Of a stretch of 64,000 nucleotides of DNA, positions 2,585-46,900 are shown in pieces. The translations under genes were made by a program, and so were the position numbers. The notes below the pieces were generated by a model. The model saw only the letters and a list, made by a program, of their open reading frames with translations. It did not search any database and was not told the origin of the DNA. Positions within the stretch are counted from its first letter, which is position 1, and the number at the start of each line of letters is the position of its first letter. Source of the DNA: a virus (lineage: Duplodnaviria > Caudoviricetes); IMG/VR virus record IMGVR_UViG_3300028591_000085, positions 1 through 64,000 of that record; one strand, written 5' to 3'.

Positions 2585-3313
2585 TTAGAAAAGTTGAAAT
2601 TTTTTAGAAGTGTCTTCCGGTTCAGTATTAATGTGAATACAATTATTAATATTCTTAAAAATATCAACACACTTCTTTATCATTTTATATGTAAAATAAG
2701 TAAGTGAATTTTTTAAAAGTTTAATTGCTTCACATGTTAACGGAGTTATAGTCTGTTGTCCTTCAAGACTTTGAACTAATGTGATGAATCTTGTATTCAT
2801 ATTATCAATTTCGTTTCTGAATTTAATAATAAATTCAATATTAGTTAATGCATTTGGAATACTGATATTTTCACAAAGATTATATTCTCCACCAAAAAGA
2901 GATTTAACAAAACTTTGATCTTTCTCTTTAGCTTTAGTTAACGAGTCATTAAACTTACTCAATACCTCTGCCGAAGAATCAGGATTTGAACGAATTATAT
3001 CAGAAACAAAATCAATCATACCATTACTATATTCTTTATATATTTCAAGTGCTTTAGACAAGCTATAGCAACAAACTTGTTTATTGGGATTAAATATTAC
3101 TGATCTTGGATCATCGAATAACGAATATACCCAACTAATATCTTTTGCTGCAACATCTACTGAAAAAAATGTTGAAATCATCTTCTTATATTTCTGCATT
3201 TCATCGGTAAATCTATCACAGATATCTCCAGCCTTCATATTGCATATATCTAAATCAGTATGAACTGATTTAAGATTATTAATAAACCCACCAATTTTAT
3301 CGCTACATATCAT
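2585..3313 (-). CDS. Hypothetical protein (structural cluster)
   Basis: 242-aa ORF with RBS AAGGAGGG. Confidence 0.75.
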   Translation of the reverse strand: MICSDKIGGFINNLKSVHTDLDICNMKAGDICDRFTDEMQKYKKMISTFFSVDVAAKDISWVYSLFDDPRSVIFNPNKQVCCYSLSKALEIYKEYSNGMIDFVSDIIRSNPDSSAEVLSKFNDSLTKAKEKDQSFVKSLFGGEYNLCENISIPNALTNIEFIIKFRNEIDNMNTRFITLVQSLEGQQTITPLTCEAIKLLKNSLTYFTYKMIKKCVDIFKNINNCIHINTEPEDTSKKFQLF

Positions 3314-30200: not shown

Positions 30201-33200
30201 TTAGTTTCTTTAGTTACATGATCAAATGTAGCATTTTCTGATCCATATACCATTGGTAAATAGTTATTTTTTTCAAGAACTGAACAGAATGCCTCGATTA
30301 TCTTAGACACTTTTTCAGCACCTAATGATTCAAGAGATACAGTTCTATATTTTTCTTCAACATCATATGCAATAGGCATATCAAATTTTTTACCTTTAAT
30401 TATATCTAAACAACGTTTAGCTTCAGCAATAGCTTCATTTTCAGTATTCGCACGACAGTAATAATATCCTCCAACATGAATACCAGCATTAATACAACCA
30501 GCATAATGCTCTTCAAACATATTATCGGTAATATCTTGACCTTCACCAATTTTAATCATGGCAAATTCTATACCATCAGCTTTAGCTTTCTTATAATCAC
30601 AATTAGTTTGACAATAACTAATATCAACACCTTTAGCACCGGATTTCATCGAATCTTCTCTATTATCAATACTAGAATATTCATAGTCAGAATTACTAGA
30701 TGAAGATGATGTACTTGTTCCAGTACTTGATGATGAACTCGTTGATGTACCAATTGTAGCATTCGATGACTCAGATGATGATTTTTCACCACGAATACTT
30801 GCAAGGATATCAGAGAAATCCACATTGAAATTACCGGTAAATAATCCATTTATTAATGCGGTACCTACTCTAGAAAATACTTGAGAAATGAAATCAAGTA
30901 TTGAGGGCTTTGAGTCTTTACTTGAACTGCTCGATGTTGATGAGTTATTGGAGCCTGGTTTACCTGAAGAACTCATTGATGAAGCATTTGTGGAGGACTT
31001 ATCATTAGATGTACCATATGTTTTTCCAGTATATGGGTCAGCATTAGTATACGCATATCCTAGAACTTTACCACCCCATAACGGGAACTCAGACATAGGT
31101 GTTTCTATAACACAACCATCTTCAGCTCTAGTTCCACCACGCTGACTTGCTAATCCATCTCCATTCGCTTCAGTCCAGTATACCATGTTATTCTTTTCAT
31201 CAAAACCTTCAATATATACTGCATGACCAGATTCACTACCAGTATCTATCGATGCTACCGAATCATCTGCAATTTCATTACCAGTTGGGAAACCAAGTTT
31301 CCCTGCATTCGCTACAACTTGATTACCGTTGCCTAACATTGACCCTGTATCAAGTGCACCCCATTTAGCACGTTCATATGCACGTCCTTCAGCATACCAT
31401 GTACATTGGCCAACATCACACTGAGCCTTTGTTGTATATCCTTCATTACTAAAATCAGCAATTCTTTTACCGATATTTTCTTTTAACCACTCTATTTGTT
31501 TTTGGTGAAGCTCTTCACGAGAACTTTCAATTTTACGAGGTTTTACATTATCACTGATTAATTTATTTATAACAGCATCTTCAGTCATTCCTGCTGGGAA
31601 TGAGTATGAATTATTATCAGCATCAGTATAATGATATCCACCATTACTATCTCTAGTAATACCTTTTCTATATTCATCTTTAGATACTGATGTTTTAGTA
31701 TTTTTATTATTTGATTTTTTATTAGTACTACTTGATTCATTTTTAAGATACGATGCAAGTTCATTCATATCTTTTACAACTATAATATTTCGATTATTTG
31801 TATCAGGCTTATAAAATGCGTCCGATACATAGGTTTTTCCATTATATGTAAATGACGGTGCATTATTGCCGTAACCAGTTGCTAAGCTCCGTTTATTATA
31901 AATACCATCTTTACCATAAATTTTATCAGCTAATTTGTCAATATTATTAATATCTGAGAAAATATCTTTTTCATTTGTTGATACTGACCATGCCTTAGAA
32001 AGGCTTCCGAATTTTTTATCCTTATCATTATAAGTATATTTATAATTATATCCACCATTATTATCTCTGGTTAATGTTCCTTTATATTTAACCTCATCAG
32101 ACTTGTATCCATCACCGAAACCACCATATTGTCCATTATCAAATGACCAGGCTTTACCGGTTCTATTTACAATATCATTAAGTTTGTATTTCTTGTTATA
32201 AGATTTTCCACGAGGATCACTTATATCAACGTTACCATTTGAATCAATACCAGTAGCAACTACATAATGTCCAGCGTCAGTATAAGGATCATCTCCCCTA
32301 CCACCATAACGTCCATTACCAGATGCTCCTGAAAGAATCATAGGTTTACCACTCTTTAATTCAGATGAAATGAATTGAGAGCTAGGCATGAATTCTTCAG
32401 TAGTATTAATACCATATGCATTTGAAGCATTATCTATAAAATTCCAATTTGTTCCAGTATCATCTCTGTCTCCAGTCATTTCAGCAAGTGCTGCTGTTTC
32501 AGTAGGTAATACAGATTGACCGGTCATCTTGGATGCTATCATAGACATTGCGGTAGGACCACATCCGGTATCATCCATGGTCGCTCCATCATTACCATAC
32601 TTATTTGAACTCCACGCAGAGTCAGACTGTGAGTAATACGGAACACCATTTACATCGTCAGGTCCTCTACCACCCTTAGGAAGTTTCTTTCGAGATTTAG
32701 ACCCCTTACCATTACCTCCCCATAATGATGTGATGTTTTCAATGTAACCAGTAGTAGTATCCTTAACTTCATTCCAAATACCAGTAGCATGCTCTTTGAT
32801 TCCTGAAATAAAGTTATTAATACCTTCAGCTATTCCATCGACAATTTTCGAAACAGTCGGGAATTTTTCGTGTATAGTTTCATATACAGACGACATAAAG
32901 TCGCTTGCCTTATCAAAGAATTTGCTAGTTGCTTCTGTAGTTTTATTCCATAATTCTTTTGCTCTATCTTTAAAATTCTGAAGAGAATTTTTAGCAGTAT
33001 TTTTCAACGGAATCTTTTCTTTAGTTAATAAACCTAATTTTATCTTTTCATTAACTTCATCAGCATTTACTGTTTCGTCAATCAGGTCACCATTAGCATT
33101 ATAATGCTTATAAGTTTTACCATCAGCAACATAATAGCTACCATCAGACGGATCAAACCATCCATACTGATTTGTCAATTTAAGTATCCCTAAACCAGCT

Positions 33201-36200
33201 CCTGCTATAGGATTTATTAAACTAAACGCAGCAGTTACGCCCTCTCTAACTTTATAGAGAACTGAATCTCTATTGTTGAACATATCGGTCCATGCATTAG
33301 ATAATTTTTCTTTGAGCTTTGCGCCAGTTTCTTTAATCTTGGTGAAATCAAAATGAGAAGTAACATCCTTAATGAATATACCAGACTTAATAGACTGCTC
33401 AACTTCTTCGTCTGTTCTGGGATTTTCAAGAACTTCATCAGTTGCTGAATAGTAAACATATTTACCATTTTCGTTCTTATAATATGTACCATCACCAACT
33501 AAATACTTCTCATCAGTTGACATTATCTTTGATACAAGCCCGTTACCCTTACTAATAGCATCTGCTAATTTAGAACTTTTCCTGATATTATCTAATAATT
33601 TTTCACCTAAAGATGTTGCAATTTTAGCAGAATTTTCTTGATTTTCATCACGCTTTTTAAATAAACTTGACCAGGCCTCAGCAGCATCATTTAATATAGT
33701 ATGTGCTATAGCAGTAGTTTTACCCATTATTTTTATATTTGTCGCTTTTATTATTCCCTGTTGGATAAGACTTGTAAGTTCTTCATCTGTTATAGGTGGA
33801 ACTTCTTGATCATATCCATCTGCATCACATAATGACCATTTACCGTTACTAGATTCATGGTAATAATAGCCAGCATACTCGCCACTCAAAACTTGATATG
33901 CGGTAACCTTTCTTGATCCAATTAGTTTTCTACCATAATCTCCGCCAGTAAAGAAATCACCGACGCTTTTAATTTTATCACCAACTATTGATACTGCTTC
34001 ATCGGTAACACCTCTGATATGTCCACCTATTTTAGCAGCTTTTTCACCGACCTTATCGCCAATGGTCTTATTCTGTTCCAAGTTCCAATCATCAAATGAT
34101 TTATGTTTAATTACTTCATTATTTTCTTCAGCCCATTGTTTATATTCATCGACTGACATATTCTTATCAACTTTACCAGATTTTTTAGCTTCTTCTAGGG
34201 ATTTTTCAGTTTGCTCAAGAACATAACTGTTATATTCATCCATAAAATTAGTTTGAGCATCCTTTAATCTAGCTTCATCAGAATCACCGGCAAATAAATT
34301 ATATAATGCATTTGCAATGTTATGCCAGCCATTCCAACCACTTAATGTATTAATAATATCAAAGATAACATCAACTATTGCACCGATTGTAGTTCCTGAA
34401 AAACCTCCAAGAATTGCAGCAATTATTTCCATTCCAGTATCAACATCATCTTGACTTACTTGGAATAATTTAGCAGCACCAGCTTTTCCACCACGTGCTA
34501 TCATGCCTAATATGCCACCACCAACTTCAAATACAATGGTACCAACTCCAAGAGTTGCAGCACCTGTTGCAGTTTTAGCTTCAGCTTCAGCAGTTACCTT
34601 TTCGACCTGTCCGACTTCTTTCGGACCAAATTTTTCAACAGCCTCCTTAATAATTTTTTCAGCTTCATCAACCGACTTAGTGGTTCCTTTAGCACCTTTA
34701 TGTTTAACAAGATCCACTATCTTTTTAAAGAAATTTTTAATTGTTTCTTTAATTCTAGTAATCATATTTTTAAGAACACCACCGGCACCCTTTTCAGTCG
34801 ATGCTAATGATGCACTATTAATTTCAATATTTTTAGCATGTTTTAATACAGCTTTTTCATACTTAGCAGCTTGTTTACTTAATTTTTTAGATTTCTTAGT
34901 TAATTTGGCAGCTTCTTTTTCTAAGTCAGTTAATGTTTCAAGTCCTACCTTTTCTGCACCACGTCCAAAACTATGAGAGAATCCTGCCATCGCTGCTTTT
35001 TTTGACGCTTCCTTAGCTTCAGTTTCTGCAAGTTTTGCTGCTGCCTCAGCAGCAATTTTCTTTTCTAGTGCTTTAGCGCCCTTAGCAGTAGCATGTTCCA
35101 TACCTTTTGTACCAAGATAGTTTAATCCACCACTAACAGCTCTAAAACCAGATGCACTCTTAGGATTAAAAATATCAGCTGCAGAATGTATATTTGCACC
35201 TTTTGATAAAACTTTACCCACACCCTGAGCAGTACCACCAACTATTTTAGTTCCGACGGTTGGAATTACTGATGCTCCTTTTCCAACAACTTTCAGTGTA
35301 CCACCCATAACTGCAGCGGTACCTCTAATTGCACCAGGATGCATTAATAAATTAGCTTTAGCTTGAGAGTGAGAATCCCATTCACCGTCTTTATTAGTCA
35401 CAAATGTCATAGGAGCTGCTAATGGGTCATAATTTTCTCCAGGAAGTAGTTGTTTAGCTGCAGCAACACTATTTTGGGCTTCGTCTTTAATATTATCTAT
35501 ATTACTCTGCCCATTAGTATTTCTATCATTTTTATTGCCTAAGAAATTAATTACGTCGGCCACTTTATTTACTAGATCAGCTGCAACATCAGCAATTTTT
35601 ATAACAGCACTTGAAAATGCTTCCCAATTAATTTTTTTAACAAGTTCAGCTGTACCATCTGCAATTTTTGTTCCGATGAACCATATATTCTTTGCTAAAC
35701 TTGAAATACCATCTATATACGGTTTAAGACTACTATTTTCATATTTTTCTTTAATCCATCCAGTGAATCCCTTTTCTTTAATATCGTTAATAGCTTGAGT
35801 AGCACCCTGTGCCATTTCAGAAAAATACGATTCCCCAGTTTTCTGGTTAACAAAAATATTTTTAATCTTTTCACCTAAAGTTTCACCTATACCATCACCC
35901 TTTAAGAATGACCAGATATTTCCTAAGATTCCACCTAAAGGTGAAGAGGCTAACCATTTAAATGCTTTTATAAGAAAAGGAGAAGCAAGTATTAAAGCAG
36001 TTGCAAGTTTTCCTTTTCTACCAAAAACACTCTTCCATTCAGCAAAATGGTCACTTGCTCTCGATTTGATAACAGCAGTATTTTCCTTTATTGCTGTAAA
36101 TAACTTCTCTGTTCTATCTCTGGTTTGTTCAGCTATTCTATGAGCAAGTCGTTGACCTCCCTGATGCACATTACTAAGTGTGGACATGATCGGATTAGGG

Positions 36201-39200
36201 TCAATCGCTGCTGCTCCAGATTCAAAGCCTTTACCACCTCTAACAACACGTACAATAGGACCATGGCCGCCAAAATTTATTTTTCGTCTAGTACCATTTC
36301 CACCATTTGCTGTCGCAGAGGCATTATTTTCATTTATTAAACGTTCAAGCCTATCAAGTTTTTCAGAATCTCCTGTAAGCTCAAAATGTATAGTCTTAAT
36401 TCCGTGTTTAAGATCAACCTGTAATGTGTCAGAATCTTGCCGACTACATCCACTACATCTCTTTGCTAAATCTTCTAAAGAACCGATATCGTCAATTTCA
36501 ACAGTACTATTTTCTAATTCATCTAAATTTTCCAACGGATTATTAGTTTTACCATTATTGGACATCATCTTTTTCCTACCCTTATTTCTAAGAGAGGCTT
36601 CCGATTTTTTAGCTTTATTACGTAACTGCATTATTAAATTATTATCATCATAATTATCATAAGAGCTGACATCTTCCATATTCTCACTGAAATCAGCGTC
36701 TTCATCTTGATATCCTTTACTATATTTACTATAGCTATCTTTTAATCCAGCGGTTGAATCCATATTTCCTTCTTGCAATTTATTACCGTCCAAATCTATG
36801 AGTTCACCTTTAGTATTACGTAAAATACCGGTTTTTAAAACTCTATTAGCTACAGTAACTACAGTTTCGCCAGGATCAAGATATATAATTTTTTTAGATA
36901 ATAATTTAGTAAGTTTATCCTGTACTTGTTCTGCAATATTATCTGCTCTATAATCGTATATATATTTAGCATGACCTGATGTAAAGTTCAATATTCCTTC
37001 ATTAAATTTATGACGTAAAAATCCTTTTACACCACCATGCATTGATACTTCGTCACCAAAGAACCGTGATGATGCAGCCTTTGCTATAACTCCACCTTTA
37101 GTTTTAGCTTGTGCAAGTCTTAACTTAGTAGCACTAAACGCATAATCTAAACCACTATGATCGCCGGGAGTATTATCAATAGTATCTTTTACTTCACGTT
37201 CAACAGCATCATAATCAATATTACCAGTAGCATCTTTATGCTTATTGATAATTTCAGTGAGTTCGGTATATCCTTTTTCACGTTCAGCTTGACTTGTATT
37301 ACTAAATCTACGTTCAAGTTCTTTATCATTTTTATCAGAGAATCTGTCTGAATCATCATCATTGCCAGAAATCTTATCATATATTTTCTTTAATACATAA
37401 GCTATCTGAGCATTCTCACTAAGTTTTGAGAACGGTAATTTTACTATATCTTTAAATCCTTTACCGATTAATGAAATACCTTCAGTTTGCTCACGCGCTC
37501 TTCTAGTAAGTGCATCTTCGGTTTCAACCGTAGTATCAAGATATTTACTTGCCTTACCGCCACTCATTACTTTAGCCATATAACGAGCTTCAGCTGTATC
37601 AGACGAATATTGACCTTTAGTATATTTCTGAATTATTTTTGCGTTCTTATCACGAATTTTTTGTTCTTTATATTCTTTATTAATTTTAGCACGAGCTTCT
37701 TTTTGTTGTTTTCTACGCTCACGCCATCTTTCAGCTCTGGTCATACCATCAAGCTGTTCCTGAGTTCTACTTGTTGGTGCTGTAATACCAAATGCTTTAC
37801 CAAACTTAGTATTACTTAACCATTTCATACCTTTTTTAGCACCGTATACACCTAACTGTAATGCAGTACCAATACCTTTAAACGCAAGTTTAATAGGTGA
37901 AAATGCTAATTTAGTAAGACCAACAATTTGTCTACCTATTGATTTAATCTCAGTTTTAATAGTTCGCTTAAGCCAATCTTTTCCTGTATCTAAAGCTGCT
38001 TTAAGTTTACTATTACGCCATGCATCTGAAAGCTTATTATATACAGTAAATTGTATTGCTTTAATTAATTTAAACGGTGCAAGAAGTATATGTTGATTTA
38101 CTTCATAAGCTAGTTTAGCAGCTCCAGAAATGACTTTCTTAACGGGAGTTACTATAGTTTTATTAAGTATTTCAGCAAACGGTACTAAAATACTATTTTT
38201 AATAAATCCTGAAATATCATTTGCAACTTCATCAAATTTTGATTTAACTGCACCAACTACACCTCCAACTTTTTCAGAGATCGCCTCTGCCATAAATGAA
38301 AGTGAGTCACCAACAGTATATTCCAAATTAAGTGCAATTTGTTTACCCCAATATACAAACTGGGTCTTCAGAGGTCTTAAGAAGTTTGCATTAAGCATAT
38401 TTCCAATACGACCGAATAATCCATGCTTATGCTTCTTTTCACCAGTATATTCGTCTATATAATCTTCACCAAATAAGAATTTCTTAAATGCTGAACCATT
38501 TGCAGCAATAGAAGCACCGAGACCCATTAATGCACCAAACACAGGTCCACCAGGTAAAACAGCACTAGCTAAAGCACCACCTAAAATACCTAAACCTGAC
38601 ATTGAAAGAATCTTGGTGTCTTGGCTTAAATTAACACCTATAGAACCAGCAAACTTATCAGCGCCTTTTCTAAATGCATCTCTTATTCCAGGAAGTAATC
38701 CTTTTTGAGCAGTGTCAGGATTTCCGAATAAGAAGTTTTTCATTTTCTCAGATCTAGCCACTAACGTTGTAGCTATACCGAGACCAGCACCTACAATAGG
38801 ACCGCCCACAAGAGTGCCAAGAAGACCTCCACCTTTTCCAAAAAGGGAATGTGTCAGCATTCCGATTGCTCCACCACCAATGATGTCAAGCTTATGTTTC
38901 TTTAAATAATCTTGAGCGCCCTTGCTAATGAAACCACCAATACGGTCACCATTTTCATCTTTTTCGCCGAATAACCAATTTTGGAAAGATTCATTCTTAG
39001 CTAAAATACTACCAGCTATACCAAGACCTACACCTGTAATAGGACCACCAATGATAGAACCTAAAAGGCTCGAACCTGCAAATATACCAAAACCGGCACC
39101 TATAGCACCGCCAATAGTAGCATCCTTGGTATAACTATTCACTTTAGCTTGTACTTTTTTCTTTATATCTTCTTCACTCTGACCTTCAAGAGGTTCACCT

Positions 39201-41560
39201 ATAATTTTTTCTTTCCATGCATTAAGACCCTGACTAAAGAAATCTTTAAACTTGGAGAATAATCCACCTTTACGTTTACCAGTAGGATTTCCATTTTCAT
39301 CAAGTTCTTCAGGTCCAAATAATTTAGTCAAAATTCCTCGTTTAATTGTACCAAATACAGAATCTTTATTATCAGCATACTCAGTACCATCACTAGAAGT
39401 ATAACCTGTACCAACTAAAGTGTACCTTATATGTTTAAAAGTATCACCTAAGTAATTACGTACTTGAGACAATAAACCATTTTGGTAATTACCGTTTTCA
39501 TCTTTAACACCTAATATAGCTTCCTTAAGAGGATTAAATACATTATTTTTAAGACTAGTACCAATATCACTAGCACCAGACTTAAAAATTCTTTGAAACT
39601 CTTGTCCAACTAATCTAATATCAAGCGGACCAGACATAAGTCGATTCATGCTTCCTTTTAAGGTATCTACTGTATTAGTGAAAAAGCTACCAACTTTACC
39701 ACCATGAGTAGCTAACCATCCAGCTTTACTTGGGTCGCTTTGCTGAAGAGCATAGCTATAATCTCTGAGATTTGCAATACTCTTATTTTTAAGACTTTTT
39801 TTAATTTCAGTATTATATAATGATGAATTAGCGCGAAGCCATTCATCGTAATTCTCAATATGAGTATCTCCAGTTGCAAAATATCCAGACCTTATCGGAT
39901 CATTTTCTATTTCTGATAAGAACTTAGTTTGATCAGCTTGAGTACTTCTTAACTGAGCAGTTAATTGTCCAGCTATATCTTTATTTTGCTCTGAAATTTT
40001 TAATAGCTCTTTAACAACTAAATCAATATTCTTATCATTTTTTCCACCAGAAAAACTCTTGGCTTGTTTAATAGCTTCAACAAAAGCTTCATTACCCATA
40101 TCCAGACTTAAATGAGATCTTTGCTCAGCCATTGATTTGAGTAATTGCTTTGCTGTAATGATAAGAGCATCTCGTTCTTCTTTAGCTTTATCTTCTGTTT
40201 GAGATTTAGTAGCTTGGGTAAAAGCATTTTCGAGTTCTTTGAACATTCTTCCATTATACAGTGGCTCCATTATTTTATTAAGTGCAGCATCTGCATTAGA
40301 ACGTCTCTTATCTTTTACCTGTATATAACCCATAGTATTAAAATCAAACATTTCAGAATCGTCTTTAGCTGTTTTAGTTTTTTCAGATTCGAAATGTCCG
40401 CTAATTATTTTCAGATACTGGGTTTGTTCTCTAAGCTCCTTAGTGATAATTTCGGTAATAGCAAATTTAGTTTCTTTATCAAAACGAATCGGACTATTCT
40501 CAAATTCATCAATTGATAACGTATTTTTCCTATTAACTCTAACACCGAATGTTTGAGCAAGGAATTTTTTAAAGTGTCCACCAATATCATGTTCACCGAC
40601 TACTACATTTTCTCCATACTCTGCTAATCTATCCAATATGACTGGTACAAAATTTGAAAATGCCGTCTCAAGACTTTGCATAGTAGAACCAAATACCTTA
40701 CTCATTAAGGTAGAACTAACCATACTTGAAACCATGCCCAGAGGATTCTCAATAAACATCTCAATCAAACTATCATCAAGATTAACTATTTCACCAATAA
40801 AAGGAACTTCGCTTAATGCACGTTTTGCATTCTTCTTGATTACATTCTTATATCGTGATAATTCTATACCACCTTTAGTACGATCCCTTAATGCCGCTAA
40901 CGGGTCATCTTCATTTTTTAATATGGATGCACCATTATCTTCTCGTTTACCAACGGCTTCATAATACCCTATACTTTTTTGAATGAATTCCTTCATGGAT
41001 TCATTATTGAATTTTACAATAGATTCAAGAGAATTTGTTACATTCTTTAAGTGAGCGTCTATCATGCCATTCATTTTTTCAAGTTGCTGCATACTTACAG
41101 CATTCATTGAAATTTGGGCATCCATATTAGCTTTAGCAATTTTTACAGTTGCTTCACCTTGACGCTGTATATTTCTATTTAAATCGAGAACAGCATCTCT
41201 AGTACCGTTATCGACATTTATATTATAACTACCTTCACCTTCACCCACATCATCTGATCCAAATGTAATATCTGATGATTCATCATCATCAGCAAACATA
41301 CCCCCAAAACCAAAATCAGAGTCATGACCGGCTATGTTACCAGCTTTTATATCTTTCCATGAATTTTTGAGAGCTTGATATGAAGCCTGAACATATTTGT
41401 TCTGCTTCAATGATGTAGCAATCCTATTTGTAGTTGCTTTTGTCTGTCTTATAGATGTAATTATTGATTTTGTAGCATTAATGCCAGCTGACGTAACATC
41501 AGATATATTAGGATATAATTCACTAAAAGCTGATGACGTGCTAGCTCCTATACTCTTCAT
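27263..41560 (-). CDS. Giant tape-measure-like tail protein with C39-like peptidase, 2x CHAP, GH25, SGNH hydrolase and phage tail lysozyme domains
   Basis: ~2950-aa helical/Gly-zipper region, then PYYSQ...GCGPTAMSM...GHY (C39-like), GQCTWYA...GHAV/GHVV (CHAP x2), GVDISYCQ...YDVEE (GH25), FVGDSR...GIND...GLHY (SGNH), AGIMGNIEQES...YERP (lysozyme). Confidence 0.88.
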   Translation of the reverse strand: MKSIGASTSSAFSELYPNISDVTSAGINATKSIITSIRQTKATTNRIATSLKQNKYVQASYQALKNSWKDIKAGNIAGHDSDFGFGGMFADDDESSDITFGSDDVGEGEGSYNINVDNGTRDAVLDLNRNIQRQGEATVKIAKANMDAQISMNAVSMQQLEKMNGMIDAHLKNVTNSLESIVKFNNESMKEFIQKSIGYYEAVGKREDNGASILKNEDDPLAALRDRTKGGIELSRYKNVIKKNAKRALSEVPFIGEIVNLDDSLIEMFIENPLGMVSSMVSSTLMSKVFGSTMQSLETAFSNFVPVILDRLAEYGENVVVGEHDIGGHFKKFLAQTFGVRVNRKNTLSIDEFENSPIRFDKETKFAITEIITKELREQTQYLKIISGHFESEKTKTAKDDSEMFDFNTMGYIQVKDKRRSNADAALNKIMEPLYNGRMFKELENAFTQATKSQTEDKAKEERDALIITAKQLLKSMAEQRSHLSLDMGNEAFVEAIKQAKSFSGGKNDKNIDLVVKELLKISEQNKDIAGQLTAQLRSTQADQTKFLSEIENDPIRSGYFATGDTHIENYDEWLRANSSLYNTEIKKSLKNKSIANLRDYSYALQQSDPSKAGWLATHGGKVGSFFTNTVDTLKGSMNRLMSGPLDIRLVGQEFQRIFKSGASDIGTSLKNNVFNPLKEAILGVKDENGNYQNGLLSQVRNYLGDTFKHIRYTLVGTGYTSSDGTEYADNKDSVFGTIKRGILTKLFGPEELDENGNPTGKRKGGLFSKFKDFFSQGLNAWKEKIIGEPLEGQSEEDIKKKVQAKVNSYTKDATIGGAIGAGFGIFAGSSLLGSIIGGPITGVGLGIAGSILAKNESFQNWLFGEKDENGDRIGGFISKGAQDYLKKHKLDIIGGGAIGMLTHSLFGKGGGLLGTLVGGPIVGAGLGIATTLVARSEKMKNFLFGNPDTAQKGLLPGIRDAFRKGADKFAGSIGVNLSQDTKILSMSGLGILGGALASAVLPGGPVFGALMGLGASIAANGSAFKKFLFGEDYIDEYTGEKKHKHGLFGRIGNMLNANFLRPLKTQFVYWGKQIALNLEYTVGDSLSFMAEAISEKVGGVVGAVKSKFDEVANDISGFIKNSILVPFAEILNKTIVTPVKKVISGAAKLAYEVNQHILLAPFKLIKAIQFTVYNKLSDAWRNSKLKAALDTGKDWLKRTIKTEIKSIGRQIVGLTKLAFSPIKLAFKGIGTALQLGVYGAKKGMKWLSNTKFGKAFGITAPTSRTQEQLDGMTRAERWRERRKQQKEARAKINKEYKEQKIRDKNAKIIQKYTKGQYSSDTAEARYMAKVMSGGKASKYLDTTVETEDALTRRAREQTEGISLIGKGFKDIVKLPFSKLSENAQIAYVLKKIYDKISGNDDDSDRFSDKNDKELERRFSNTSQAEREKGYTELTEIINKHKDATGNIDYDAVEREVKDTIDNTPGDHSGLDYAFSATKLRLAQAKTKGGVIAKAASSRFFGDEVSMHGGVKGFLRHKFNEGILNFTSGHAKYIYDYRADNIAEQVQDKLTKLLSKKIIYLDPGETVVTVANRVLKTGILRNTKGELIDLDGNKLQEGNMDSTAGLKDSYSKYSKGYQDEDADFSENMEDVSSYDNYDDNNLIMQLRNKAKKSEASLRNKGRKKMMSNNGKTNNPLENLDELENSTVEIDDIGSLEDLAKRCSGCSRQDSDTLQVDLKHGIKTIHFELTGDSEKLDRLERLINENNASATANGGNGTRRKINFGGHGPIVRVVRGGKGFESGAAAIDPNPIMSTLSNVHQGGQRLAHRIAEQTRDRTEKLFTAIKENTAVIKSRASDHFAEWKSVFGRKGKLATALILASPFLIKAFKWLASSPLGGILGNIWSFLKGDGIGETLGEKIKNIFVNQKTGESYFSEMAQGATQAINDIKEKGFTGWIKEKYENSSLKPYIDGISSLAKNIWFIGTKIADGTAELVKKINWEAFSSAVIKIADVAADLVNKVADVINFLGNKNDRNTNGQSNIDNIKDEAQNSVAAAKQLLPGENYDPLAAPMTFVTNKDGEWDSHSQAKANLLMHPGAIRGTAAVMGGTLKVVGKGASVIPTVGTKIVGGTAQGVGKVLSKGANIHSAADIFNPKSASGFRAVSGGLNYLGTKGMEHATAKGAKALEKKIAAEAAAKLAETEAKEASKKAAMAGFSHSFGRGAEKVGLETLTDLEKEAAKLTKKSKKLSKQAAKYEKAVLKHAKNIEINSASLASTEKGAGGVLKNMITRIKETIKNFFKKIVDLVKHKGAKGTTKSVDEAEKIIKEAVEKFGPKEVGQVEKVTAEAEAKTATGAATLGVGTIVFEVGGGILGMIARGGKAGAAKLFQVSQDDVDTGMEIIAAILGGFSGTTIGAIVDVIFDIINTLSGWNGWHNIANALYNLFAGDSDEARLKDAQTNFMDEYNSYVLEQTEKSLEEAKKSGKVDKNMSVDEYKQWAEENNEVIKHKSFDDWNLEQNKTIGDKVGEKAAKIGGHIRGVTDEAVSIVGDKIKSVGDFFTGGDYGRKLIGSRKVTAYQVLSGEYAGYYYHESSNGKWSLCDADGYDQEVPPITDEELTSLIQQGIIKATNIKIMGKTTAIAHTILNDAAEAWSSLFKKRDENQENSAKIATSLGEKLLDNIRKSSKLADAISKGNGLVSKIMSTDEKYLVGDGTYYKNENGKYVYYSATDEVLENPRTDEEVEQSIKSGIFIKDVTSHFDFTKIKETGAKLKEKLSNAWTDMFNNRDSVLYKVREGVTAAFSLINPIAGAGLGILKLTNQYGWFDPSDGSYYVADGKTYKHYNANGDLIDETVNADEVNEKIKLGLLTKEKIPLKNTAKNSLQNFKDRAKELWNKTTEATSKFFDKASDFMSSVYETIHEKFPTVSKIVDGIAEGINNFISGIKEHATGIWNEVKDTTTGYIENITSLWGGNGKGSKSRKKLPKGGRGPDDVNGVPYYSQSDSAWSSNKYGNDGATMDDTGCGPTAMSMIASKMTGQSVLPTETAALAEMTGDRDDTGTNWNFIDNASNAYGINTTEEFMPSSQFISSELKSGKPMILSGASGNGRYGGRGDDPYTDAGHYVVATGIDSNGNVDISDPRGKSYNKKYKLNDIVNRTGKAWSFDNGQYGGFGDGYKSDEVKYKGTLTRDNNGGYNYKYTYNDKDKKFGSLSKAWSVSTNEKDIFSDINNIDKLADKIYGKDGIYNKRSLATGYGNNAPSFTYNGKTYVSDAFYKPDTNNRNIIVVKDMNELASYLKNESSSTNKKSNNKNTKTSVSKDEYRKGITRDSNGGYHYTDADNNSYSFPAGMTEDAVINKLISDNVKPRKIESSREELHQKQIEWLKENIGKRIADFSNEGYTTKAQCDVGQCTWYAEGRAYERAKWGALDTGSMLGNGNQVVANAGKLGFPTGNEIADDSVASIDTGSESGHAVYIEGFDEKNNMVYWTEANGDGLASQRGGTRAEDGCVIETPMSEFPLWGGKVLGYAYTNADPYTGKTYGTSNDKSSTNASSMSSSGKPGSNNSSTSSSSSKDSKPSILDFISQVFSRVGTALINGLFTGNFNVDFSDILASIRGEKSSSESSNATIGTSTSSSSSTGTSTSSSSSNSDYEYSSIDNREDSMKSGAKGVDISYCQTNCDYKKAKADGIEFAMIKIGEGQDITDNMFEEHYAGCINAGIHVGGYYYCRANTENEAIAEAKRCLDIIKGKKFDMPIAYDVEEKYRTVSLESLGAEKVSKIIEAFCSVLEKNNYLPMVYGSENATFDHVTKETKNKYALWVAKWGSYQPTLKWKIWQYAGDPQEMQVKGIPGKAVDMDKCNTDYPSLIMQKGLNGYKQGEKNTDNKKNGDNRSDSLDSVKSKPNNSKVIFVGDSRTVGMYTSVNAYNGEGMNAIYTEGKDGNVYIAQVSQGIQWFTYTAPAKIAEYAKGSTNAKVVIWLGINDVAENTPNTQMTDTAKLYAYQAEKIASSIKNTIYFVSVGHLASKSKNSDYIKSYNSALKKAISELKNDKIKFIDLDSWFTEKVNDGTIKSSDGGLHYDASSYRAIYNEILSKIGAGGSGKAIINKNSMNLPELIKLNKTQLGGLTSNVRNSSLPVKSYGGGRGTGKGNTPRINSAADYADYQKKQSSTDGTTSSGTHDNSKHIQELKAAVGQRLADFSSEGYTSKAQCDAGQCTWYAEGRAWERAKWEGLNKGVSLGNGQDVVNTVSGLGLPTGSEIADDSLASMHSSSPYGHVVYVEGVDKDNQTVYWSEANGNSDNVVSADDGVIQATPFSEWQNKGVIGYAYTDASNNYVPLGTASSSSSSDASMASSSSSSSSSVEDGMSFIASVFSEAGRRMTNAMFTGELDTDYSGFLSGLKSSSSSSSSSSSSSDASLDSSSSASSDAAGTVDGNSVKEQVWNALAGYGYSAAAIAGIMGNIEQESGFDPGVYSQDGGGGLVQWTPWGSKIGAYSQEVKGDNLAWRNDVGLQMEYLHKTMTNSGRNDTIYSDWVELGGMTYDEFKSISDPIRAAESFMKVYERPGIPMSDNRRNAAQKYYDEFANKATKKSNTSTSSSSMPNISSSINYKNYMDSLNSGGYGSRKKSRAGKGNTNTSASIKHRNAKSIKDTTNKINKYTDDLIKSNRKITNRGGYGLGTEDFSIESGLIDGGTASDIYRSTNHVTNNINTSQVDPASMQQIIGLLNNIVTNTYNTSNGITGLSSIKPQNIVNNNSTVIQDTIRNMEAAHKPKTSLAGDSSRNTIIARKIARGL

Positions 41561-41676
41561 GACATTATCTAGCCATGGAGTTTTAAGTTTTGTACTATTC
41601 TTTCTTCAACATTTCGTTTAGAAGCCATAATTGACTTTTCACTCCTTTCCTCATAAAAAAAGAAGAGGTTTAAACT

Positions 41677-41689
41677 TTAAATTATTGTT
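41677..41689 (-). promoter_or_regulatory. Late-type promoter AACA-N6-TAA
   Basis: AACAataattTAA upstream of the giant gene's RBS. Confidence 0.6.
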
Positions 41690-41716
41690 TTTCTATATAA
41701 ATAATAGGAAAAAAAT

Positions 41717-41752
41717 AAGAGATACGGTTATTTACAAATAACCGTATCTCTT
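41717..41752 (-). terminator. Intrinsic terminator
   Basis: aagagatacggttattt / aaataaccgtatctctt, T-run on the minus strand. Confidence 0.85.
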
Positions 41753-41782
41753 TAAATGGGAGTAATGAGAGTAAAAATGGGC

Positions 41783-42343
41783 TTACTTAATCTTCTTCCT
41801 TTCCTGTAACCATGACGGGCAGGAAGACTTAGAAGCAACTTCCTTATGCTTCTTCTTCTTGGTCTCATAGGTGCCAAGATACGATCTATCCTGAGGACTA
41901 TGTGCATCAGTTACCGTGGTCTTATCACCAACATCCTTCAGATAAATCTTACCATTAAAATCTTTTCTAGGCAGGAATTCGAACTGGTTACCTGCACCCA
42001 TATATTCATAGAGTGCAGTCGCAAAGAACTCATACATTCCATCCATAGACGGAATAATGAATGACTTATCCAGAATCTTTACGGATTCTGACTTATCCAT
42101 ACCCGCCTTTTCGAGAAGCGACTTACACCACTTTCTGAATTCCTTAGAAACCATAATCTCCTCAACATCGTCAAGGTTACCCTTCTTAATCTTAGCAACC
42201 TCGGTAGTAAACTCTACATCATTTGCAAGAGCAGTAAGGAGCTTAGTGAAATTCTTTTTGTTAAAACGATTTACAATCGTTTTTCCGTTCTTAGTCTTAG
42301 CCTTCATTTCAGCCAGGGCTTCTTCAACTGTTAATACTTTCAT
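41783..42343 (-). CDS. Putative HU/IHF-like DNA-binding protein with N-terminal extension
   Basis: ALYEYMGAGNQFEF...GKIYLK...SPQDRS...KHKEVASK resembles the HU beta-arm; strong RBS, AAG-rich codons. Confidence 0.45.
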   Translation of the reverse strand: MKVLTVEEALAEMKAKTKNGKTIVNRFNKKNFTKLLTALANDVEFTTEVAKIKKGNLDDVEEIMVSKEFRKWCKSLLEKAGMDKSESVKILDKSFIIPSMDGMYEFFATALYEYMGAGNQFEFLPRKDFNGKIYLKDVGDKTTVTDAHSPQDRSYLGTYETKKKKHKEVASKSSCPSWLQERKKIK

Positions 42344-42459
42344 GATTTTTTCCTCCTTGATTTTTCTTTCTTGTCTTTTTTGATTTTCTTACGTTCTTTT
42401 ACTAACCGTAAAATATCATCAAGACAAAACGATTCCAGGTTGTCGATTTTGATTTTCAT
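42340..42459 (-). CDS. Small basic protein (below the ORF-track cutoff)
   Basis: MKIKIDNLESFCLDDILRLVKERKKIKKDKKEKSRRKKS; RBS GAAAGGG; TGA overlaps ATG 42343. Confidence 0.55.
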   Translation of the reverse strand: MKIKIDNLESFCLDDILRLVKERKKIKKDKKEKSRRKKS

Positions 42460-42501
42460 CTTCATCAACCCTTTCATTACAATATTGTGTAGTGTATAAT
42501 A

Positions 42502-42511
42502 AAATAATATA
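42502..42511 (-). promoter_or_regulatory. Early-type promoter TATATTATTT
   Basis: Exact motif. Confidence 0.55.
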
Positions 42512-42580
42512 ATAAAGTATATAACTTCTACACAATATAATATTATATAATAAAAACCGTAAAGTCGGTTTTTTCGATGA

Positions 42581-42590
42581 TATACTATTT
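42581..42590 (+). promoter_or_regulatory. Early-type promoter TATACTATTT
   Basis: One mismatch to consensus, precedes structured leader copy 1. Confidence 0.55.
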
Positions 42591-42606
42591 ATGTGCCATA
42601 ATGATA

Positions 42607-42687
42607 TTGTCAATAATATCATTACCAACTTACGCATTCCGATTGATGGAAAGTAAGACGTAAGGTTTCGTGTAATGATTGAGACAA
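42607..42687 (+). ncRNA. Structured 5' leader RNA, copy 1 (unclassified)
   Basis: Nested stems ttgtc/gacaa, atcattac/gtaatgat, cttacg/cgtaag, ttcc/ggaa; covaries with copy 2. Confidence 0.75.
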
Positions 42688-42712
42688 AATAAATTTTAAA
42701 GGAGGAATCATT

Positions 42713-43066
42713 ATGACAAAAATCGTAAACCTCACTCCCCACATGGTAACCATCATGGGCGAGGGCAACAAGTTTGCCCTCAATATCGAGCCATCTGGCA
42801 AGTTGGCTCGTGTATCCGCTACGACCGTAGTCGTAGGTGAGATAGAGGTGAGGACCGACATACGGACGACGTTTAAGGTACCCATAACGACAACCCGTTA
42901 CGGGGAGGTTGAGGGACTCCCCGATCCCGCGCCTGATACTATCTACGTAGTATCCTCCCTTGTCGCGGGACGTGTCCCCGACAGGGAGGATGTTTTCATC
43001 CCGAACGAGTCCGTTCGGGATGACGAGGGGAGGATCATCGGATGCCGTTCCCTCGGCCACATCTGA
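42713..43066 (+). CDS. NLTPH-family protein, probable Crn4-like cyclic oligoadenylate ring nuclease (candidate anti-type III CRISPR)
   Basis: NLTPH...PSGKLARV...YGEVEGLP...IYVVSSLVA...REDVFIP...VRDDEGRIIGCRSL; RBS AAAGGAGG; ~55% GC. Crn4 label is from recollection of the family motif. Confidence 0.65.
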   Translation: MTKIVNLTPHMVTIMGEGNKFALNIEPSGKLARVSATTVVVGEIEVRTDIRTTFKVPITTTRYGEVEGLPDPAPDTIYVVSSLVAGRVPDREDVFIPNESVRDDEGRIIGCRSLGHI

Positions 43067-43075
43067 TGACCTAAA

Positions 43076-43410
43076 CCACATGAAAGGAGGTGATTAACAT
43101 GTGGAATTAATTAGCACCCATCCCCAAAGGGTGAACGTGGTTTCTATACTGACACGTAAAAAAGTATAGCGTTGATAGTTTCGTAAAACTATAGATATCC
43201 GTCATACTTTGTATGGTCCAGAGCTCGCTAGTGGGAGTAACTGGTGAAAAGGAAGAAAGAAGTAATACTATGCGAGTTAGTATTATGAGCGCTCACTAGA
43301 AATGCCGAACATCTTGGGGTGGAAGATACGTATAAGAATCAGAAATGTACGGCGCATTTCTGTTACATAACTAAAAATAAGTTGAAGTTCTCGCATCAAC
43401 TTATTTTTTT
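43076..43410 (+). ncRNA. Highly structured ~335-nt non-coding RNA (unclassified), ending in a terminator
   Basis: About eight hairpins plus five loop-mediated pairings; no long ORF. Confidence 0.7.
43373..43410 (+). terminator. Intrinsic terminator
   Basis: aaaaataagttga / tcaacttattttttt. Confidence 0.85.
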
Positions 43411-43464
43411 ATAATTTTTTATATAATCAAATTTACTCATTCGTATTTTGTTTTTTTGTATATA

Positions 43465-43474
43465 TATATTATTT
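43465..43474 (+). promoter_or_regulatory. Early-type promoter TATATTATTT
   Basis: Exact motif, precedes structured leader copy 2. Confidence 0.6.
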
Positions 43475-43494
43475 ATTTAGTCATATTGATAATA

Positions 43495-43570
43495 TACCAA
43501 TAGAACTATACCAACTTATGCATTCCTAATAGAGGATATTAGTCATAAGGTGTCGAGTATAGTTATGGTA
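43495..43570 (+). ncRNA. Structured 5' leader RNA, copy 2 (unclassified)
   Basis: tacca/tggta, aactatac/gtatagtt, cttatg/cataag, tcct/agga. Confidence 0.75.
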
Positions 43571-43594
43571 AATAAAAAATAAGGAGGTATCATT

Positions 43595-43903
43595 ATGACT
43601 GATAAGAACATATTCGAAATAGCCTCAAACGATGCTGAGGCTAACCAACTCATGGAGAAGGTTTTTTATGCATCAAAAACCTTCAACGACACTCTGTTCT
43701 CGATCAAATATTTGATCGAGAACAGATACAATAATAAAGCTCCTGGATCAATGATTGAGCTGCTCTATCAGCTCAAAGGTATGGCAGAAAAGTTAATAGT
43801 ATCTGCCGAAATCATTTCCGACTTCGGTCATATGCTGGCCGAAGTCAAGGCTTTGAGCGAAAATGATTCAGTCGAAGCTGAGGAAGCTAAGACTGAGGGC
43901 TAA
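43595..43903 (+). CDS. Early hypothetical protein (helical, acidic)
   Basis: 102 aa, RBS AAGGAGG, GC above background. Confidence 0.8.
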   Translation: MTDKNIFEIASNDAEANQLMEKVFYASKTFNDTLFSIKYLIENRYNNKAPGSMIELLYQLKGMAEKLIVSAEIISDFGHMLAEVKALSENDSVEAEEAKTEG

Positions 43904-43909
43904 AAGATA

Positions 43910-43955
43910 AGGACTCCCCGAACAATCTGGTGTTCGTTCGGGGAGTCTTTTTTTT
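43910..43955 (+). terminator. Intrinsic terminator
   Basis: gactccccgaac / gttcggggagtc followed by a T-run. Confidence 0.9.
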
Positions 43956-46900
43956 TAATCTTTTTTGTCATAAATTTCTTTTAAGCTTCTTTTTAATTCT
44001 ATAATGCATTTATTACCAAGTGCTGTTAACAATATACTCGGTGTCATACGTTTTAAAATACTATTAGAAGCTATTATTGTACTAACTTCTTCTTCGGGTC
44101 TATAACTACTCCAGGGTTCATATCCTGCAGGAATTATTTCACCAATGGTATTCTTAAGAGCAGTAAAATTGGCTATCTTGGAGCCAACTTCTAGAGGTTC
44201 AGAGTGTTTTACATAGAACTCTATAAGTACTCCACCCTCTTCAATTTTTTCTCCTTTAATAACACCAAATTTATTGGGTTCAATTTTTTTACTTGTTTCA
44301 TTAACAAGTAAACCACATTTAACTATACTACCAGCTGAGTCCGGATCATACTTTTCTAAGAACTTTTTCTTAGAATTTATAGTACTATAATAATTACTTA
44401 CAATCTTTCTTAATGAAGGTGAAAGCTCATCAAGTTCAACTGTAGAATATATCTTAATTTCTTCAATTACTCCTGAATATTTGGAATGAATGTCATTCCT
44501 ACTCCCTTCAAGAATAGTAGATTGTTCCTCTTGACTAAGATTTGCAAGTAAAGTATTCAATGAATTATCTTCAAATGAAGTATCAAATTGAATCAAGCTG
44601 TCTCCTACTTTTATTTCTTGACCTTTTTTAACCATATATTCAACGTTAGCATTTTTACCAATTACAACACTCTTTAAGAAACACATCTCTGTTGCAGCTT
44701 CATCTGATAATTTTTCAGTTATCATTGTAGCATCTTGATAAGTGTTATAAGTAGACATGATTGCAACTTTAGTAAGTGTTCCCATGTTCATTCTGCAATT
44801 ATTAAACTTATCATTGGTAAAGAAGTCTTTATGATAAGCTAATACAGAATCTTTCTTAAACTTATCTCCAACTTTTAATGTAGTAATTAATTGGTTACTC
44901 AAGAAGAAACCACCGCCACCATTTTTAACAATAGTATGACCTAGGTTAACAGCTTGACATTTCCCAGAGTTATATTTAACTATCATTATATCATCTTTAT
45001 AATCTACTACAATACCATCTTCAGCAGCATTGACAGCAAAGTCTGATGATAATTGGAAACGACAAACTTCTTCCATACCATTAGATATTAATACAGGGGA
45101 TGATTTCTTTACAGGAATAGTATGTTTAGATTGTTTTAATGCGTGTCCAAGACGAGTAGGGTCATCATTAGTAGCACCTAAAGGTATAGTTAATTCAGCA
45201 GGTGAGAATACATCTACATCGTGTAACGTATCCAATTTTTCATTTTTTGAATCAACGTAATTTAAATCAACATATCCACGTAACGACGTTATTGAAGGAT
45301 TAAACGTAAGAGTCTTGCTTACACCACAAGAACCGTCAGGAGATGTTGACGGTGATATAACACCTATCGAGGTCTTATCAAAAGTTCTTTTAGGAACTGT
45401 ATAAGATTCATCAAGGTTAGCACCTCTAAATCCTTTACTAGAAATACCACGGAACATTTCCATTTCAAGTGTTGGATTAAGTGTGGAATAATCTTCAACA
45501 GTTTTTAATGCAATAAGTTCTTTTATTACACAATCCTGAGGTACTGAATATGCTTTTTTACCGTTACTATTTCTATATAAAATATATTTCTTAGCAAGAC
45601 GCTCATAAAGAATAGCAGGTATTATTTCATTACATCTAATTCTTGATAGTCCCTGATTTATTTCAGGAGTATATTGAGAATCAGATAATAATGATACAGC
45701 GTATATGATTATCTCTATTAAGTCATAAGGAATATTAATATCTTTACATACTTCCACAGTTATGGGGTCCATCATAAATTCATACACGTTAAGTAATGCA
45801 TTTGCAATTGCAGCTTTACCCCAAACTTTTATTAAATATGGCATATATGGTTCTTTAGTATCCATTTCAGAGATTTTATAATTCTGAGTATCTAAGAATC
45901 TGTATCCATTTATTAATAAATCAATACCAACTGTAGATTCGTATACAAGATAGCAATCTGCAAATCTTAAATAGCTTTCATTAGGTTTAAGCTCAGGAAA
46001 CTTATCGTCAAGTCTATATTTAACTTTTCCTTTTTTAAGTAATGATGATAAACCTTCCCAAAATCCCAATAATAAACCAACAGCAACATACTGTTCAAGA
46101 ACTTTTGCTCTGGTATACATAAGTCTCTTAGGAGCTCTAGTAGATTCATATACATGTTTTTCTTCATCAGATAAAGCATTTAACATAATATAAACTATGG
46201 TATCATTATTATCAGTTTTTTGAGTTTCCTCATTTATATAAATAGGAGAACCGCTTTTATCTAAACCAATAAAGATATATCCTTTCTTCATGGGTATATC
46301 TCTTTTTTTAGCAAATTCTATTGCTTCATTCTGGTTAAATAAAATTTCAGTCTTTCCTTTTTTAAACTTTATCGCAATCTTAGAAAGTTCATCATACTCT
46401 ACTGTAGTAATAAACTTATTGTTTATTGAGATACAGTTTCCATATGTAAAGTATTTCTTTATTTCATCTGACTTTTTCAATACAGTTTTAAGTCTTTCTA
46501 TAGATGATAAAGATTTAGTTCCAACTCGTTCAATAAACATCTTATTGTAGTTAGTTGTTAACTGAACTATATTTGAACTAGTCTTCACAACTGGATATAA
46601 TAAGTTTTGTTTTTTGATAACTTTTCTATTGCCACCTATATAAATAAATTTATCTTCTATAAATTTAGGTATATCAACCTTAATTGTATGACGTTTTCTA
46701 TTAGTATCTTCAAGATAAATAGTATATGTATCTTTATAATTTAACTCATCAGACGAATCTTGAATTTTTATATCTCTAACAAACATGGGAAGAGACTTAT
46801 TATTTAATGAAAGAATTGCATCAGTTATATCTTTCGGCATTAATTTTTCATTATATTCCTTATCAAAATTATCAAATTTCAGTTGCGTCACATTTTTATT

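Follow-up and report, generated by a model that had tools for sequence, protein, structure and literature searches.

A jumbo-phage gene for a Crn4b-like ring nuclease in an expression cassette with conserved non-coding ends

The closest described relatives of the protein studied here are Crn4b from a member of the Hyphomicrobiales (MBK8772583, PDB 9r7b), which is encoded in a type III-D/Can2 locus, and Crn4a from Actinomyces procaprae (WP_136192672, PDB 9sma and 9qs9), which is associated with Csm6-2/CorA. Crn4b cleaves the cyclic oligoadenylates (cOA) cA4 and cA3 and not cA6; Crn4a cleaves all three and does not cleave cAAG. cA4 is turned over at about 1 per min, whereas the rates for cA3 and cA6 are low (0.02-0.08 per min); such speeds may or may not suffice for an anti-CRISPR (Acr). 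The activity of Crn4a is abolished in the variants H15A and R112A (PMC12830947). The S91/R92 pair, of which R92 stacks on adenine in Crn4a, has been reported to be structurally conserved in Crn4b; it does not define the catalytic function. Crn4a sets off type II Panoptes by removal of cA3. Partial relief of type III immunity by Crn4a was seen in a plasmid assay; Crn4b homologues, which occur in 11 of 28,137 phage genomes and in 10 of 59,895 plasmids, have been proposed as anti-CRISPRs (Chi et al. 2025, PMC12830947). These homologues are of the same family as our protein and have the same proposed role. The enzyme family and its occurrence in phages are already published (PMC12830947); added here are the jumbo-phage context and an unusual expression cassette.

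The same working logic is found in AcrIII-1/Crn2 (DUF1874), a viral, metal-independent anti-type III ring nuclease with a general-acid histidine, which however has an unrelated fold and is specific for cA4. Acb1, a phage anti-CBASS 2H phosphodiesterase, likewise degrades cA3 among other signals; it is unrelated in fold and sequence and also cleaves non-adenylate CBASS signals, whereas Crn4a leaves cAAG uncleaved. On the side of gene expression, the PeSL ('promoter-early stem-loop') cassettes of T4-type phages consist of an early promoter and a stem-loop that are repeated before small accessory genes in variable slots. The early promoters of the AR9 virion RNA polymerase (RNAP) have the consensus AAATATATATTAT-N6-G+1 (PMC5312081).

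The gene described here, crn4, lies in the window, by which we mean the whole stretch of 64,000 nucleotides that was analysed; it corresponds to positions 1 to 64,000 of an IMG/VR virus record of 203,042 bp with a CheckV completeness estimate of 85%. According to our main reading, to which we give a probability of about three in four, the gene product is a Crn4b-like ring nuclease that is made early and degrades cOA, acting against type III CRISPR and possibly against cA3-signalling CBASS. A literature search found no paper linking Crn4 with jumbo phages. With four natural alleles, crn4 is a concrete candidate for asking whether jumbo phages neutralise cOA signalling, and the anatomy of its cassette provides a handle on the expression and exchange of counter-defence genes in these phages. 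The features are listed in Table 1.

Table 1. Positions of the crn4 cassette elements in the window and of related features in the 203-kb record
Feature	Position	Strand	Nucleotide identity, four alleles	Basis or remark
Bipartite promoter-like element CGTA-N18-ATATACTAT-N6-G	42558..42595	+		Read from sequence; predicted start G42595
Structured 5' leader, nested stems CTTAYG/CRTAAG and TTCCN/NGGAA, then TATAAT-like box	42622..42688	+	89-100%	Covariance model R1
Shine-Dalgarno (SD) sequence AAAGGAGG	42698..42705	+		Read from sequence; consensus SD
Crn4b-like ring nuclease CDS, 117 aa (T8, H10, R102)	42713..43066	+		Intact ORF
ORF codons 1-33			69-95%	
Hypervariable segment, ORF codons 34-57, distal beta-hairpin arm	42812..42883	+	50-82%, 9-nt indel	Four-allele comparison
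ORF codons 58-117			84-94%	
Hairpin CCACATG/CATGTGG after stop, extended SD AAAGGAGGTGAT in loop	43076..43104	+		Kept in L002 and L114
Conserved non-coding 3' RNA, same predicted transcript as crn4	43105..43375	+	96.8-98.5%	No ORF; fold z -2.4
Intrinsic terminator, 10-bp AT-rich stem AATAAGTTGA/TCAACTTATT, then T run	43376..43410	+		Read from sequence
Leader copies (~66 nt), window	42622-42688, 43508-43572			
Further leader copies, 203-kb record	66513, 85696, 91764 (weak), 136156, 141420, 152414, 159171, 174454			
Predicted transcription starts, 203-kb record	42595, 43479, 83839, 85782, 98230, 127207, 152507, 173909, 179824			Bipartite motif
Other leader-class genes, 203-kb record	43595-43903, 66604-67464, 85470-85649, 135878-136111, 140923-141393, 152032-152391, 159257-160162, 174619-175029			
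Phage tubulin, 203-kb record	74228-74722	+		PF00091, 66 bits, 381-aa ORF
Reverse transcriptase, 203-kb record	168063-168644	-		PF00078, 70.8 bits, 370-aa ORF

Sequence and fold of the Crn4-like protein

The crn4 ORF starts with ATG, 8 nt downstream of its SD sequence, and ends with TGA, behind which comes another TGA in frame. A preceding reading of the DNA, made without database searches (the sequence-only reading), had noticed an intact motif set and had assigned it to the Crn4 family. All motifs are present, NLTPH at residues 6-10, ARV at 32-34, YVVS at 78-81 and RDDEGRIIGC at 102-111. Sequence, profile and fold all confirm the assignment, and the catalytic histidine and arginine are kept. 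Over its full length the protein matches the PDB chains of Crn4b (9r7b, E = 7e-16), Crn4a (9sma, E = 2e-12) and Crn4 H15A (9qs9, E = 5e-11). The PADLOC profile Unk_01, which is the former name of Crn4, was matched with an E-value of 9.9e-27. Searches of the 117-aa protein against Pfam and NCBIfam returned no family, thus the Crn4 family is not yet part of these collections; DUF1874 (AcrIII-1/Crn2) gave no Pfam match at E <= 1. The PHROGs families that match the protein are of unknown function. Some phage homologues carry an N-terminal extension of 60-80 aa, and PHROG 30542 and 21731 align C-terminally only; the window protein is without this extension and is in this respect like Crn4b, which is also small.

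The AlphaFold2 monomer model, obtained with 116 homologues, has a mean pLDDT of 95.7 and contains an extended beta-hairpin arm (strands 33-47 and 53-67) and a single short helix (82-87). Such an arm and helix, together with pairs of beta-strands, make up the Crn4 fold, which resembles no other known fold. The search for related structures, which had been proposed as a check together with the profile search, retrieved Crn4 entries only: Foldseek against the PDB found 9r7b, 9sma and 9qs9 (TM 0.73-0.78, E down to 3e-11), the next match having an E-value of 1. T8, H10 and R102 align with T13, H15 and R112 of Crn4a, which has the same fold and the same catalytic pair. H10, located in the NLTPH motif, is aligned with the catalytic histidine (Crn4a H15, Crn4b H17), and R102 with the catalytic or phosphate-binding arginine (Crn4a R112, Crn4b R103). 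Both residues and 17 other positions are invariant across the 116 homologues, and T8 is invariant too.

Like our protein, Crn4b has the NLTPH histidine, the arginine of the C-terminal RD..GRI.GC motif and an equivalent of S81. S81 corresponds to the serine of the ligand-contacting S91/R92 pair of Crn4a; the equivalent of R92, an arginine in Crn4b, is here a serine (S82), as in 103 of the 116 relatives. Five residues further on, R87 is an arginine in 115 of the 116, and it may substitute for the lost R92 contact. Since the R92 equivalent is a serine, binding details and ring preference may differ from those of Crn4a. We group the protein with Crn4b, based on the better match (37% identity over the whole length and TM 0.77-0.78, versus 28% identity with Crn4a) and on the arm, which is shorter than that of Crn4a. 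In alignments the arm exceeds that of Crn4b by about 5 residues and is without the insertion of about 10 residues that is present in the Crn4a arm. Across the 116 homologues the arm measures between 14 and 40 residues.

The cassette and its alleles

The 150 nucleotides upstream of crn4 are one copy of a repeated module. The bipartite promoter-like motif, in its general form CGTA-N17-19-ATAYAYWAT-N6-R, has nine matches in the 203-kb genome, of which four are found no more than 80 nt upstream of a leader copy; another two (127207 and 173909) are located beside other cassette-like upstream repeats. Its second half has the same shape (ATAYAYTAT-N6-G) as the AR9 early consensus, thus early expression of crn4 may reasonably be inferred from this analogy, although the RNAP beta subunits of the two phages are only about 30% identical. 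The sequence-only reading had called the protein an early factor, and this part of it stands by analogy only.

The leader was found by a covariance model in ten copies in the 203-kb genome, each of them in sense orientation to a small stand-alone gene, and these genes are mutually unrelated. In the hairpin, 96% of the cells are paired and four pairs are changed on both sides, which none of 500 shuffles reached; in slid controls at most 38-61% were paired. G-U pairs occur on the sense strand only. The leader is also present in the relatives L002, L105 and L114. It was absent near crn4 in 68 of 68 loci of other Crn4-carrying phages, therefore the leader is a property of the phage group and not of the gene.

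Downstream of the stop codon follows a hairpin with a 7-bp stem, the 15-nt loop of which forms a perfect extended SD sequence; 3' of it lies a mini-ORF of two to three codons (MWN-stop, in relatives MW-stop). This hairpin may be a ribosome-binding stabiliser of the RNA downstream, comparable to STAB-SD. The 3' RNA is conserved across the four cassettes to a degree (Table 1) that their ORFs, which differ by 8-50%, do not reach. An Rfam scan of positions 41500-44500 gave two sub-threshold matches only, and the 3' RNA has no Rfam match. One was to L20_leader (window 41710-41863, minus strand; 32 bits versus a gathering score of 58.7), is probably due to chance and overlaps a 16-bp terminator hairpin after the 186-aa gene; the other, to a lncRNA fragment, was also taken as chance. 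The terminator of the cassette was missed by the automated scan because its stem contains only two G-C pairs.

In the cassette, a promoter of the early type and a covarying leader precede a gene with GC3-rich codons, and the 3' RNA behind the gene is better conserved than the ORF itself. The cassette resembles the PeSL cassettes in being a repeated module of promoter and stem-loop, but the sequence and the hairpin are different and a conserved 3' RNA of about 300 nt is part of the cassette here.

Relatives of the locus were found by a metagenome scan, and a scan of IMG/VR with the neighbouring 186-aa protein found nothing. Four cassette alleles have been sequenced (window, L002 from JGI, L114 and L119), and two of the four occupy the same slot in the genome. 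The core of the gene is under strong purifying selection, with a dN/dS of 0.05 at a dS of 0.31 between the window and L002 in codons 58-117. Silent divergence ranges from a dS of 0.05 to saturation depending on the segment. Since it is so sharply uneven between segments, crn4 is best described as a recombination mosaic of old alleles between conserved non-coding modules. The most variable segment is the distal part of the arm; the arm is 23-26 residues long in the four alleles and has a dN of 0.10-0.57, with dS as high or saturated. The data do not demonstrate positive selection on the arm, since dS is as high as dN and a recombination mosaic with relaxed constraint explains the arm equally well. 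Hypermutation of the arm by a diversity-generating retroelement (DGR) was rejected: no template repeat was found, matches to the gene are 12-nt chance matches only, and the reverse transcriptase is located elsewhere in the genome.

In a fifth relative (L105), whose 186-aa neighbour is 81% identical, the leader is followed, again in this slot, by a different Crn4 allele, of which 23 codons precede the end of the contig. L107 and L108, in which this neighbour is about 70% identical, have other genes in the same slot, and L002 contains an extra leader with a 72-aa cassette (3003-3311) between the 102-aa gene and the RNAP beta gene that is absent from the window. Thus, the slot is an accessory hot spot, and Crn4 has long been in the lineage.

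GC content and codon usage of crn4

The GC content of about 55% against a background of about 30% given in the sequence-only reading agrees well with the values calculated here, 0.554 for crn4 and 0.312 across the 203,042-bp record (z = 4.5 among 354-nt windows of the record). The GC content at codon positions 1, 2 and 3 is 0.57, 0.44 and 0.65. The single 354-nt window with the highest GC content in the record begins at 42731, and in GC3 crn4 ranks first among 179 ORFs, for which the genome mean is 0.23-0.24 (sd 0.10-0.11); the GC anomaly is therefore real.

Several effects contribute to it. Crn4 genes are richer in GC than their flanks in 50 of 52 phage loci from IMG/VR, on average by 0.09, which reflects the high content of Gly, Pro, Arg and Val and the low content of Lys in the proteins. 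A fit over these 52 loci (gene = 0.96 x flank + 0.11) predicts a value of 0.41 here and leaves a clade-specific residual of about 0.15. The nine clear leader-class genes, crn4 included, have a mean GC3 of 0.48 versus 0.23 in the 170 other ORFs (Mann-Whitney p = 4e-6), and in each codon class their usage is shifted toward C as well as toward G. The eight leader-class genes other than crn4 have no Pfam or PHROG family. At the level of the clade, the four alleles hold a GC3 of 0.60-0.65 despite deep silent divergence. Phage tRNAs as the basis of two codon-usage classes were ruled out, since the 203 kb contain no tRNA gene.

Opposite to crn4 the GC-rich stretch contains an antisense ORF of 220 aa (42419..43081), which is longer than the crn4 ORF and could be taken for the true gene, or the region could be taken as non-coding altogether. 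Long spurious antisense ORFs are however frequent in GC-rich DNA, and the plus-strand frame of crn4 has 1394 homologous clusters, a consensus SD, a dN/dS of 0.05 and a confident fold. This reading can be set aside with near certainty; the antisense ORF is a by-product of the GC-rich stretch. The origin of the GC richness itself deserves more attention, as the sequence-only reading had described the gene as recently acquired or strongly host-adapted. Recent horizontal acquisition from a GC-rich donor would fit with a GC content 0.15 above the family-trend prediction for a phage with 31% GC, with a shift in codon use all through the gene (all 9 Glu codons are GAG, the G fraction of NNR codons is 0.92 and the C fraction of NNY codons 0.74) and with the slots of the more distant relatives L107 and L108, which are without crn4. 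Against it stand the four alleles, which lie between near-identical leader and 3' RNA modules and are yet deeply diverged at silent sites (dS of the core 0.19-0.45, higher elsewhere; 0.2-1.7 or saturated overall), all with the GC3 noted above. In addition, a Crn4 allele is present behind the same leader in L105, and the eight other leader-class genes are GC3-rich too. The lineage of the window shows no decay, having 9 GC-to-AT versus 10 AT-to-GC changes (9 versus 1 in the L002 lineage), and a tree of 73 phage and MAG alleles contains no GC-rich donor, the sister allele L025 having a GC3 of 0.30. Deep alleles with kept GC3 and the lack of a donor in the tree therefore make recent acquisition the weaker explanation, which we consider unlikely. 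What is left of the original statement is its second part in a wider form, host adaptation or a class-specific trait, which is in better agreement with the high GC3 of all genes that follow this leader. The GC content of crn4 could be due to a maintained class-specific codon usage or to repeated exchange among GC-richer alleles, two processes that are not separable here.

Phage context, distribution and proposed role

The sequence-only reading had also spoken of a jumbo phage, and the record bears this out: it is 203 kb long, the same 117-aa Crn4-like protein is encoded on a 273-kb ENA contig, and the phage encodes an RNAP beta subunit of its own as well as a tubulin. The 1450-aa gene adjoining the crn4 cassette encodes the RNAP beta subunit (phrog_3148, E = 5e-154), which is about 30% identical to the counterparts of PBS1, Listeria phage LPJP1, Staphylococcus jumbo phages and phiR1-37. 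Phage tubulin is typical of nucleus-forming phages and is by itself no proof of nucleus formation. Nucleus-forming jumbo phages are said to escape DNA-targeting defences and to stay open to type III systems through their mRNA, as Mayo-Munoz et al. reportedly described in 2022. The strong SD sequences, and the presence of Bacillota among the look-alikes and the RNAP relatives, suggest a host from the Bacillota.

crn4 is oriented opposite to its core neighbours, the unit of 45-aa, 186-aa and 4765-aa genes and the RNAP beta gene. The 4765-aa protein (window 27263-41560, minus strand) has Ser-rich linkers and repeated segments. The 102-aa neighbour could be assigned to no family; it is not similar to the 119-aa cassette protein, and its only look-alikes are weak helical ones.

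Relatives of the protein were found in 22 cultured-phage records, all less than 48% identical and none of them larger than 200 kb (the largest has 182 kb); they include phages of Paenibacillus, Bacillus, Microcystis and Thermobifida. Nine plasmids carry relatives. In the GTDB species genomes, a pattern scan picked up just three, all of them distant (41-43% identity). A megablast search of the locus against cultured phages gave no match. In metagenomes, 1394 clusters are homologous, and at least 146 IMG/VR contigs encode relatives, many of these contigs being longer than 100 kb; among the best 80 IMG/VR relatives, nine are on contigs of more than 200 kb. These numbers indicate that uncultured phages carry Crn4 much more often than the reported 11 of 28,137 cultured genomes would suggest.

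As judged from the homologous enzymes of known structure, the protein would form an arm-swapped homodimer whose two long beta-hairpins shut over one cyclic oligoadenylate. H10 of one subunit would act as the general acid and R102 of the other would hold the phosphate, allowing a metal-free cut of the ring on one or both sides with short linear A(n)>P as products. The likeliest substrates would be cA4 and cA3, as for Crn4b. Since the gene is located behind a virion-RNAP-type early promoter and a conserved leader, in a jumbo phage with its own RNAP and a tubulin, the enzyme would be made when infection starts. The second messenger would then be drained and cOA kept below the threshold of CARF/SAVED effectors, and type III CRISPR, possibly also cA3-CBASS, would be blunted.

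The same enzyme could also have cA3-signalling CBASS or another cA3 system as its main target instead of type III CRISPR. Both Crn4a and Crn4b cleave cA3, an anti-CBASS role has been raised for the family (PMC12830947), and the sequence holds nothing that separates the two targets. However, Crn4a cleaves cA4 about 10-fold faster than cA3 and leaves cAAG uncleaved, and the cellular members of the family are type III-associated. We regard CBASS as the main target as improbable, and this possibility is compatible with an action against type III CRISPR rather than exclusive of it. It might also be thought that the protein is a cOA sponge or regulator without nuclease activity, since some ring-nuclease families have sponging members, for example Csx15, and since the R92 equivalent is lost. 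The invariance of the catalytic histidine and arginine and 17 other positions in 116 relatives suggests that the catalytic residues are under selection, which makes a sponge very unlikely.

If the cassette is exchanged between phages, its conserved non-coding ends might serve as recombination anchors, so that arm alleles could be swapped between co-infecting phages. In Crn4 the arm shuts over the ligand, and its length separates the cA6-cleaving Crn4a from Crn4b; therefore arm differences could tune specificity. Such a polymorphism could change which ring sizes are destroyed, or help to evade guards such as type II Panoptes, which senses cA3 removal. Taken as a whole, a picture in which Crn4 is a common and so far overlooked answer of jumbo phages to type III CRISPR, the only CRISPR type still able to act on them via their mRNA, and is borne on an exchangeable early cassette with swapped arms is a tentative one, and we rate it as possible rather than probable.

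Two further observations concern other parts of these genomes. The reverse transcriptase of the phage is located in a region (165-171 kb) with several stretches of moderately high GC content; it may belong to a DGR or a retron-like element and is unlinked to crn4. In the relative L107 (167-4395), the RNAP beta gene is split after ...GSKIA by about 1.2 kb with an HNH-like ORF of 265 aa, and its last 67 codons are found 3' of this interruption, which is probably an intron with a homing endonuclease (compare the annotation of PBS1).
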